Source: a virus. Taken from it: DNA of 21,494 bases. The position numbers were made by a program, and so were the translations under genes. The stretch is taken from positions 1 through 21,494 of IMG/VR virus record IMGVR_UViG_3300020215_000050; one strand, 5' to 3'. How positions within the stretch are numbered: position 1 is the stretch's first letter; the number at the start of each line of letters is the position of its first letter. A model generated the notes under the pieces. The model worked only from the letters and a program-made list of their open reading frames with translations, was not told where the DNA came from and did not search any database. Below, one piece after another: positions 129-5,295 of the stretch.

Positions 129-203
129 TGGAGCCACCCGAAGGACTTGCGCCTTCCTCTCCGTCCTACCAAGACGGGGCCTCGCTTTCTAGGCGTGGGC
201 GGC
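129..203 (-). tRNA. atypical tRNA-Thr(GGT)
   Basis: Acceptor GCCGCCC/GGGTGGC-T-CCA; D-stem GCCT/AGGC; anticodon arm CCGTC-TTGGTAG-GACGG; T-stem GAAGG/CCTTC but loop CGCAAGT; A at position 8; no GG in the D-loop. Confidence 0.8.
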
Positions 204-1458: not shown

Positions 1459-1533
1459 TGGAGGGACCGGCGGGAGTCGAACCCGCTTTGGTCGGATTGA
1501 AAGCCGATGCATTGCCACCACTGCCACGATCCC
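1459..1533 (-). tRNA. tRNA with 8-nt anticodon loop CTTTCAAT (Glu TTC, TCA or quadruplet; identity undetermined)
   Basis: Acceptor GGGATCG/CGGTCCC-T-CCA; D-arm GCA-GTGGTGGCAA-TGC; TCGG-CTTTCAAT-CCGA; canonical T-arm GCGGG-TTCGACT-CCCGC. Confidence 0.8.
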
Positions 1534-3517: not shown

Positions 3518-3706
3518 TCAGCCCTCGAGCTCCTGGTTCATGACGGAGGACCCGCCCAGTCCCGTCGGACAGCCCGATCGGGTGCAGACGTATCCCATGA
3601 CGCCGGATATACTAAGCCCGCACTTCGGGCAAGTCAAAACGGTCCGCTCGGCCAGGAACTCCGGCTCGGAACGGTCGGTGTACTCGGAAAGAAACTCTTT
3701 GGACAT
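3518..3706 (-). CDS. small Cys4 (CPKC...CTRSGC) zinc-finger-like protein
   Basis: 62 aa; GAGGGG RBS right after the tRNA-Tyr CCA; contains EFLSE and EFLAE motifs. Confidence 0.7.
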   Translation of the reverse strand: MSKEFLSEYTDRSEPEFLAERTVLTCPKCGLSISGVMGYVCTRSGCPTGLGGSSVMNQELEG

Positions 3707-3724
3707 CAGCCCCTCTGGTGAGAT

Positions 3725-3815
3725 TGGTGGGCCCGCGAGGAATCGAACCTCCCGTCAGCCACCCCGCTTATTTCATAGACCGAGGTTTTACAGACCCCTG
3801 CGGGGAAACGGACCC
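3725..3815 (-). tRNA. D-armless tRNA-Tyr(GTA)-like RNA with long variable region
   Basis: Acceptor GGGTCCG/CGGGCCC-A-CCA; anticodon arm GGGGT-CTGTAAA-ACCTC; T-loop TTCGATT; only TTTCCCCGCA in place of the D-arm. Confidence 0.8.
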
Positions 3816-3838
3816 GCGCTATAGTAGTCGTCGGCCAT
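3788..3838 (-). CDS. 16-aa mini-ORF MADDYYSAGPFPRRGL reading into tRNA-Tyr
   Basis: AAGGAG RBS 8 nt before the ATG, directly after a late promoter box; stop TAA lies in the anticodon loop. Confidence 0.4.
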   Translation of the reverse strand: MADDYYSAGPFPRRGL

Positions 3839-3857
3839 GGAACAAGCTCCTTTGGGC

Positions 3858-3865
3858 TATTTAGG
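3858..3865 (-). promoter_or_regulatory. T4-type late promoter variant (CCTAAATA)
   Basis: TAAATA core upstream of the tRNA-Tyr and internal-protein genes. Confidence 0.55.
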
Positions 3866-3870
3866 CAGAA

Positions 3871-4154
3871 CGGGACCCCAAACCTTAGGAGAAAGGGGTC
3901 CCGCCTGGAGATGATCGCGTCGAAAAGGAGCAACCTGATGACGCTTTCATCAACTCCGCAGCTCCCGAGTAGTCTCGGGAGATGAATGATGTTCGCCCTC
4001 GCGGGCTGGACACCTCGCCACGCGGCCTCTACGGGGGCCGCGGCCCGGACCTTCGGTACATCAAGCCCATTGCTCGATCCTCCAGTCGGCGTCTTTCCCG
4101 GATGATGCCCCCTGGGACGGGAGTGCCGGGAAAGTCTCGTGGGCGTTGACGCCC
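3871..4154 (-). ncRNA. candidate ~285-nt multi-hairpin ncRNA
   Basis: No substantial ORF; at least seven stems, including GCCC-GCGA-GGGC, CTCCCGAG/CTCGGGAG, CTTTCCCGG/CCGGGAAAG and CGGGACCCC/GGGGTCCCG. Confidence 0.5.
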
Positions 4155-5190: not shown

Positions 5191-5191
5191 A

Positions 5192-5281
5192 TCGGCGCCG
5201 AGGGAATCGAACCCTCCCGAGAACTCCGGTCCGGAGCTAAGGGGGTATAAGTCCCTCCCGCACTGACCAGTGCTGACGCCA
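5192..5281 (-). tRNA. tRNA with TAT anticodon (Ile AUA) and long variable arm, no encoded CCA
   Basis: TGGCGTC/GGCGCCG acceptor; D-arm GCACT-GGTC-AGTGC; loop CT-TAT-AC; variable stem AGCTCCG/CGGAGTT; GAGGG-TTCGATT-CCCTC. Confidence 0.8.
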
Positions 5282-5295
5282 TCAAACTCGCGACT

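Follow-up and report, generated by a model that had tools for sequence, protein, structure and literature searches.

A phage tRNA-Tyr gene from a conserved non-cloverleaf class, with a probable pseudoknot core in place of the D arm

We describe a 91-nt tRNA-like gene on the minus strand (3815..3725) of the window, by which we mean the whole 21,494-nt stretch of viral DNA that was analysed (IMG/VR record IMGVR_UViG_3300020215_000050, positions 1 to 21,494). The gene has a GUA anticodon, A73 and an encoded CCA, and it has no D hairpin. Judged from its own sequence and from those of its relatives, it is a real, intact member of a conserved class of pseudoknotted tRNA-Tyr. We consider it probable that this is an intact phage tRNA-Tyr gene of a conserved non-cloverleaf class, built around a pseudoknot core, used in translation and, more speculatively, rewired against nucleases. 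On the minus strand its 5' half reads GGGUCCGU UU CCCCGC A GGGGU CUGUAAA ACCUC G GUC UAUGAAAUAA and its 3' half, after UAUGAAAUAA, reads GCGGGG UGGCU GAC GG GAGG UUCGAUU CCUC GCGGGCCC A CCA (Table 1). The original prediction described a D-armless tRNA, and its reading of the sequence stands: with a 7-bp acceptor (GGGUCCG/CGGGCCC, next UUUCCCCGCA, then the 5-bp anticodon stem) only 10 nt lie between the acceptor and anticodon stems and the D hairpin is absent; the CCCCGC found there is exactly complementary to GCGGGG of the variable region (helix X); and the ~28-nt variable region is closed by GUC/GAC (helix V), with UGG present after the helix. Both CCCCGC/GCGGGG and GUC/GAC are Watson-Crick throughout in the window copy, and the chance of a random perfect 6-mer complement in a 28-nt region is roughly 0.006. 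The non-Watson-Crick pairs of this copy are U.G at 4-69 and 8-65 and A.G at 17-35; it also has AAUAA before and UGG after the 3' strand of helix X, the CUGUAAA loop and the ACCA end.

Table 1. Features of the tRNA-Tyr gene, in window positions, and relatives in named loci.
Feature	Position	Strand	Basis
Whole gene, non-cloverleaf tRNA-Tyr(GUA), 91 nt	3725..3815	-	covariance models R1, R2
Acceptor 5' strand, nt 1-8 GGGUCCGU, 8 bp with 3729-3736	3808..3815	-	covariation
Linker UU, nt 9-10	3806..3807	-	TT in 41/51 family sequences
Helix X 5' strand CCCCGC, nt 11-16, where the D arm would begin	3800..3805	-	covariation, RNAalifold
Anticodon arm: A17, 5-bp stem, loop CUGUAAA, stem 3' strand	3782..3799	-	5/5 stem pairs covary
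Anticodon GUA	3789-3791	-	within loop CUGUAAA
Helix V 5' strand GUC, nt 36-38, variable-arm stem	3778..3780	-	pair counts, 51 sequences
Loop UAUGAAAUAA, ends in conserved AAUAA	3768..3777	-	A-rich ...AAUAA in nearly all members
Helix X 3' strand GCGGGG, nt 49-54, within the variable-arm loop	3762..3767	-	covariation, RNAalifold
UGGCU; UGG = candidate G18 G19 stand-in	3757..3761	-	YGG after helix X, 49/51
Helix V 3' strand GAC, nt 60-62, crosses helix X	3754..3756	-	pair counts
T arm: 4-bp stem GAGG/CCUC, loop UUCGAUU	3737..3751	-	covariation, RNAalifold
Acceptor 3' strand GCGGGCCC, discriminator A73, CCA	3725..3736	-	ACCA in 46/51
Family members unannotated in GenBank phage records	L002:513-600, L003:463-550, L004:582-670, L358:792-880, L005:1191-1278		

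Standard gene finders pass over this gene, and the family exposes a blind spot of ARAGORN and Rfam. ARAGORN did not call it in the default, intron or mitochondrial modes, and the call made with -ps80 was rejected as a spurious fold with a four-base 'aaac' anticodon. An Rfam search with E up to 10 gave no RF00005 match at 3725..3815, the sole Rfam match over exactly these coordinates being a tmRNA at 10.9 bits; the gathering score of RF00005 is 29 bits, a threshold that the window gene does not reach and below which the copy of phage Rembedalsseter (26.3 bits) also falls. Megablast of the region against phages returned no match. Just 9-10 nt lie between the acceptor and anticodon stems, where a canonical tRNA has its D stem-loop. 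A local CCCC-GCA-GGGG hairpin of the window copy was considered and set aside, as it is not conserved (for example CCCCACAUCGG in L002).

Relatives are widespread. By blastn against GenBank phages, full-length relatives were found in the Pseudomonas phages Rembedalsseter, SCYZ1 and Lyrsu01-03, and further ones in the oyster-derived phage HSd1 and in Rhizobium phage RHph_N3_2 (87.2 bits); the GenBank records of these cultured or complete phages leave the family gene unannotated. A covariance model built from four of the blastn-found phage sequences (R1) was applied to loci from pattern scans of IMG/VR, metagenomes and species genomes, and gave 72 matches at 42-110 bits, with the ordinary tRNAs of the same loci below 30; once identical copies are merged, 51 distinct sequences (87-98 nt) remain, and they come from phage contigs, metagenomes and no fewer than five cultured phages. 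The window copy scores 100.6 bits with R1, and 92.8 bits (E 1.6e-25) with a second model (R2) from whose building it and its closest relative, L184, were left out; A17.G35 is then its sole non-standard pair, and the runner-up in the window, an ordinary tRNA-Leu, reaches 25 bits. Species genomes gave one strong match in 185,579, namely L184 itself, a MAG contig with a tRNA array; the pattern used there demands AATAAG and ACCA, which bounds what the scan could detect, and judged with that pattern the pseudoknotted family looks phage-borne. Rare members have the same pseudoknot architecture with other anticodons: GCA at L114:8433-8523 and L313:13117-13205, both on contigs that also carry a GUA member, and the Arg-like UCU at L005:1191-1278 and L100:3493-3579, the HSd1 copy being among these two. 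A scan for more Cys-type members returned L114 alone.

The evidence for the fold is comparative. In a structure-blind MAFFT alignment of the 51 sequences (A5), pairs were counted against shuffles and against slid partners: over the whole structure 95.3% of cells are paired, compared with 68.3% in shuffles and 39-49% when partners are slid by 1-3 columns, double changes occur at 22 pairs compared with 16.7 in shuffles, and 0/500 shuffles match the observed values on any measure. Covariation of CCCCGC/GCGGGG among homologues had been proposed as the test of helix X, and the helix passes it, with 98.4% of its cells paired through 26 different complementary sequences and double changes at 4/6 pairs. 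Its pair 15-54 is found as all four Watson-Crick types (AU15 CG15 UA11 GC9) and its pair 14-55 is nearly as varied (CG21 GU14 UA9 GC5 AU1). In helix V, pair 37-69 is CG28 UA12 GC6 AU2 UG2, and 49-50 of the 51 sequences retain pairs 36-70 and 38-68. A fourth variable-stem pair (35-71) was rejected, being unpaired in 24/51; column 35 pairs instead with column 17, and this pair is standard in 40/51 members. Because their strands follow the order X5' < V5' < X3' < V3', helices X and V make a pseudoknot; and as the GUC/GAC stem that crosses helix X covaries too, the rewired topology first suggested from one sequence is a true pseudoknot.

The same alignment settles the layout of the acceptor branch. 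Acceptor pairs 1-7 covary among the 51 sequences, and an eighth pair is formed by alignment columns 8-89 (GC21 UG17 UA8 AU2 CG2, 1 unpaired), whereas the 7/5 reading (pair 72-89) was rejected, being unpaired in 42/51. Because the partner of nt 8 is the nucleotide that comes directly after the T stem, the layout of the acceptor/T branch is 8/4 and not 7/5. The elements of the original stem layout were right, and two of its details are corrected: nt 8 is paired, which makes an 8-bp acceptor and a 4-bp T stem, and the variable stem has 3 bp rather than 4. The 8/4 arrangement, the extra 17-35 pair and the widespread family with its rare Cys- and Arg-anticodon members had all been overlooked. RNAalifold, run on the structure-blind alignment, returned the 8-bp acceptor, helix X, a 6-bp anticodon stem (17-35 added) and the 4-bp T stem. 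On a tree made from the other columns, pair types changed ~18 times at 15-54, ~14 at 14-55, ~16 at 37-69 and ~13 at 8-89, rough numbers given that the alignment is short. Folded alone, the window copy takes another structure (MFE -36.0 kcal/mol; the comparative nested fold without helix V reaches -32.8) with a folding z-score of -0.94, and the comparative structure is not recovered from the single sequence.

How might such a chain build a tRNA? Two nucleotides follow the 8-bp acceptor, and a 6-nt strand then runs straight into the anticodon stem, its partner sitting in the long variable-arm loop between AAUAA and UGG. The resulting 6-bp helix, stacked on the anticodon stem, would fill the place of the D stem, and the 3-bp variable stem crosses it to form the pseudoknot; in effect, the D loop and one half of the D arm would have been moved behind the anticodon arm. 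The acceptor branch comes to 12 bp (8 + 4), and the continuous stack consists of the 6 bp of helix X, pair 17-35 and the 5-bp anticodon stem (6 + 1 + 5 layers), about as many layers as a normal tRNA gains from its anticodon stem, its D stem, pair 26-44 and the layers of its core. Because it runs directly into the anticodon stem, the strand of nt 11-16 has the polarity to take the place of the D-stem strand 22-25, and the variable-loop strand would then take that of 10-13. The YGG that follows helix X in 49/51 sequences would be placed where G18 G19 would be, making it a candidate for contact with the conserved T loop, and the conserved AAUAA before the 3' strand of helix X may dock in the groove. 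The window RNA would in this way keep the L-shape, as was first suggested.

Several lines of evidence argue for a working tRNA-Tyr. The GUA anticodon is kept in 47/51 members, ACCA in 46/51 and G1-C72 in 46/51; the anticodon loop is CUGUAAA or CUGUAAC in 46/51 and the T loop UUCRAWU in 47/51. The window copy has G34 U35 A36, A73, G1-C72 and a long, though remodelled, variable arm, as well as the T loop UUCGAUU and the CCA, in agreement with the Tyr determinants claimed for it from the start. Bacterial TyrRS reads the variable arm of its tRNA, and the remodelling of this arm in the window RNA counts against the tRNA-Tyr interpretation. The two GCA members differ in sequence yet both carry U73, and GCA with U73 is the identity set of CysRS (PMC5389517); the shared discriminator fits selection for charging. 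In G000, the 123-kb T4-like record (CheckV 74% complete, T4-like replication genes, 64% G+C), ARAGORN finds ten tRNAs, none of them Tyr, and the window gene is the only tyrosine tRNA found; a TyrRS gene was not found in this 74%-complete record. Host TyrRS would charge the RNA through GUA, A73 and G1-C72, and the charged RNA would decode UAY in translation. From these features the window gene is most likely a working tRNA-Tyr.

The genomic setting of the family suggests that its members do more than fill a gap. In the window, ARAGORN calls seven further tRNAs, each on the strand of the pseudoknotted gene, and the six that look standard encode CCA, as this gene does. A TAAATA box lies 42 nt upstream of the first base (3858..3863, minus strand), T4-late-promoter-like by consensus match only, and L184 has a similar box (AATAAATAG) 17 nt upstream. 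In cultured phages of 41-47 kb, the family member is accompanied by at most one other tRNA-like gene. It is the only one in Rembedalsseter (45 kb), where it stands behind TTGACA-17-TATACT with an extended -10, and in SCYZ1 it stands behind a perfect TTGACA-17-TATAAT, these sigma-70 promoters matching the consensus at 11/12 or 12/12 positions. The member lies just upstream of terS in the Pseudomonas phages, and in HSd1 the only tRNA-like gene is the UCU-anticodon member. A canonical class II tRNA-Tyr shares the array with a member in 14/71 loci (L282, L284, L289, L311, L323 and L338 among them), often adjacent, within 10 nt. This discards the idea that the member always replaces the canonical tRNA-Tyr: the rewired tRNA does not serve solely to stand in for the normal one, and probably offers something beyond it. 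The variable stem of the co-resident canonical tRNA-Tyr (GCC/GGC) resembles helix V, which is consistent with an origin by duplication.

What the rewiring might offer is suggested by anti-phage defence. Cleavage in the variable arm is how retron-Eco7 and Septu PtuAB deplete tRNA-Tyr, and the tRNA-Tyr of T5 escapes because its variable loop is distinctive and its promoter strong (PMC11555353, PMC13096335). By analogy, our leading guess, a speculative one, is that the rewiring is an escape from defence nucleases that cut the variable arm of tRNA-Tyr; a variable loop buried in helix X could serve this end. The T5 tRNA also has an altered variable arm, and strong promoters are seen here in the small Pseudomonas phages; the T5 molecule is a normal cloverleaf, whereas the window RNA is a pseudoknot. 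We give only modest weight to the fuller version, in which a natural, translation-competent elongator with a pseudoknot core was derived from class II tRNA-Tyr so as to bury the cut site of PtuAB-type Septu/retron nucleases while still being accepted by TyrRS, EF-Tu and the ribosome.

The main rival explanation is that the RNA is a tRNA-like decoy or anti-defence RNA, which would mimic tRNA-Tyr and occupy or block a host nuclease directed at tRNA-Tyr, or another tRNA-binding factor, without being used by the ribosome. Such a role could explain why a canonical tRNA-Tyr stands beside the member, often in tandem, in the 14/71 loci, and why consensus promoters precede it in small phages with almost no other tRNA, tRNA-Tyr being a known defence target. 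Yet the 12-bp acceptor branch, the T loop, CCA, A73 and a MiaA-/Tgt-type anticodon loop are all retained, the discriminator switches with the anticodon in the GCA members, which points to charging, and the member is the sole Tyr tRNA in G000 and in many arrays. On balance we regard the decoy as unlikely. We give still less credit to the possibility that the RNA is a working tRNA in which helices X and V never coexist but form in alternative or sequential folds, with no static pseudoknot. Covariation indeed demonstrates selection of each helix rather than their coexistence, and the 7-14 nt loop between the helices is unlike that of classical H-type pseudoknots; however, both helices are kept in nearly every member, the loop lengths permit X and V at once, and neither RNAalifold nor the slid controls revealed a competing conserved pairing. 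Finally, a decayed tRNA pseudogene or a coding or leader-peptide region (ORF 3706..3933, mini-ORF 3838..3788) can practically be dismissed: standard finders do reject 3725..3815 and ORFs do overlap the gene, one of 16 codons with two Tyr codons ending in the anticodon loop, but there are 51 distinct relatives with compensatory changes, their lengths (87-98 nt) differ by non-multiples of three and the mini-ORF is missing in L184. This mini-ORF (3788-3838, minus strand; MADDYYSAGPFPRRGL) has GGAG ~8 nt before its ATG, its two Tyr codons lie just before the tRNA 5' end and its stop is the UAA inside the anticodon loop; from the sequence it is probably fortuitous, because it is absent upstream of L184.

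A working tRNA-Tyr with a pseudoknot core is best placed by comparison with known tRNAs. It has in common with canonical class II tRNA-Tyr(GUA) (RF00005) the GUA in a CUGUAAA loop, A73, G1-C72, CCA, the T loop and the long variable arm, and the canonical copies beside members in L282, L323 and L338 have a similar variable stem (GCC/GGC, GUC/GAC). A D hairpin and a 7/5 branch characterise the canonical molecule; the window RNA has an 8/4 branch, no D hairpin and an enlarged variable-arm loop, part of which pairs with nt 11-16. The (8/4) tRNAs and allo-tRNAs of bacteria and phages (Mukai et al., 2017, PMC5389517) share the 8-bp acceptor, the 4-bp T stem, a 6-bp helix in the D position, a 6-bp anticodon stem and the long variable arm, and they too are found in phage tRNA clusters. 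The stack of helix X on the anticodon stem in the window RNA has the same 6 + 6 arrangement as allo-tRNAs and tRNA-Sec (PMC5389517). However, the (8/4) tRNAs are cloverleaves with a normal D stem-loop, a long stem closed by a tetraloop, whereas the window RNA has its partner strand on the 3' side of the anticodon arm. The (8/4) tRNAs described so far in that paper are for Ser, His, Cys and diverse allo-anticodons, and neither a Tyr member nor a pseudoknot was found there (PMC5389517). Mitochondrial D-armless tRNAs (tRNA-Ser(AGY), nematode; PMC7609411) likewise have no D hairpin between the acceptor and anticodon stems, but they are shortened and flexible with no replacement helix and belong to organelles, while the window RNA is longer than a class I tRNA, rebuilds the helix and belongs to a family in phages of bacteria. 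Full-text literature searches and a reading of PMC5389517 and PMC7609411 gave no published description of this pseudoknotted tRNA design without a D hairpin.

Tyrosine-accepting viral tRNA-like structures, such as the 3' end of brome mosaic virus, are pseudoknotted and present a tRNA-like shape to TyrRS, as the window RNA would; structures of this type form the 3' ends of plant RNA virus genomes and are not known to have an anticodon function. The window RNA differs from them in being a free-standing gene with a full anticodon arm and an unrelated sequence.

Other unusual tRNA-like genes are found in the same record. Outside the window, G000 holds three on the plus strand that default ARAGORN missed (40129-40211, 41380-41462 and 41465-41545, that is L357:130-212, 1381-1463 and 1466-1546), with the Arg anticodons UCU, UCG and GCG. 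All three have a 7-bp acceptor, a 7-8 nt linker into the anticodon stem and no D hairpin; farther on come a variable region of 22-24 nt, in which GGUAACUGGAGG is conserved, a T stem of 5 bp and CCA. A pattern scan for this type added 9 distinct relatives whose anticodons are ACG, GCG or UCU, and RNAalifold gave three arms only for the set. In the window, a tRNA gene at 1459-1533 (minus strand; RF00005, 42 bits) has an 8-nt anticodon loop, CUUUCAAU, which ARAGORN reads as a four-base anticodon 'ttca'; to judge from this loop, it may read UGA or a quadruplet codon. At 5191-5285 (minus strand) ARAGORN reports an 86-nt tRNA-like gene with a UAU anticodon and a long variable arm, and draws its acceptor stem poorly paired. 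This gene abuts a tRNA-Asn without a spacer, has no encoded CCA and matches tRNA-Sec weakly, at 23.6 bits, which is under the cut-off; it resembles the UAU allo-tRNAs that Mukai et al. (2017) described. Model R2 also gives a weak match of 14.5 bits at 129-203 (minus strand), directly upstream of a tRNA-Thr (53-127); the site is called by neither ARAGORN nor Rfam and may be another aberrant tRNA, or nothing.

The elongator tRNAs described outside organelles in the literature searched are all cloverleaves, and a conserved, probably functional pseudoknot tRNA would demonstrate that a chain of another topology can also arrive at the L-shape. The family would account for phage arrays that seem to lack a Tyr tRNA, and it connects tRNA architecture, in a way that can be tested, with the anti-phage nucleases directed at tRNA-Tyr; a parallel rewiring in the Arg tRNAs of the same genome, if true, would make this a general phage strategy. 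For tRNA engineering, the pseudoknotted tRNA may be of use as a natural scaffold that looks orthogonal. The gene is present in cultured Pseudomonas and Rhizobium phages, which makes these proposals directly testable.
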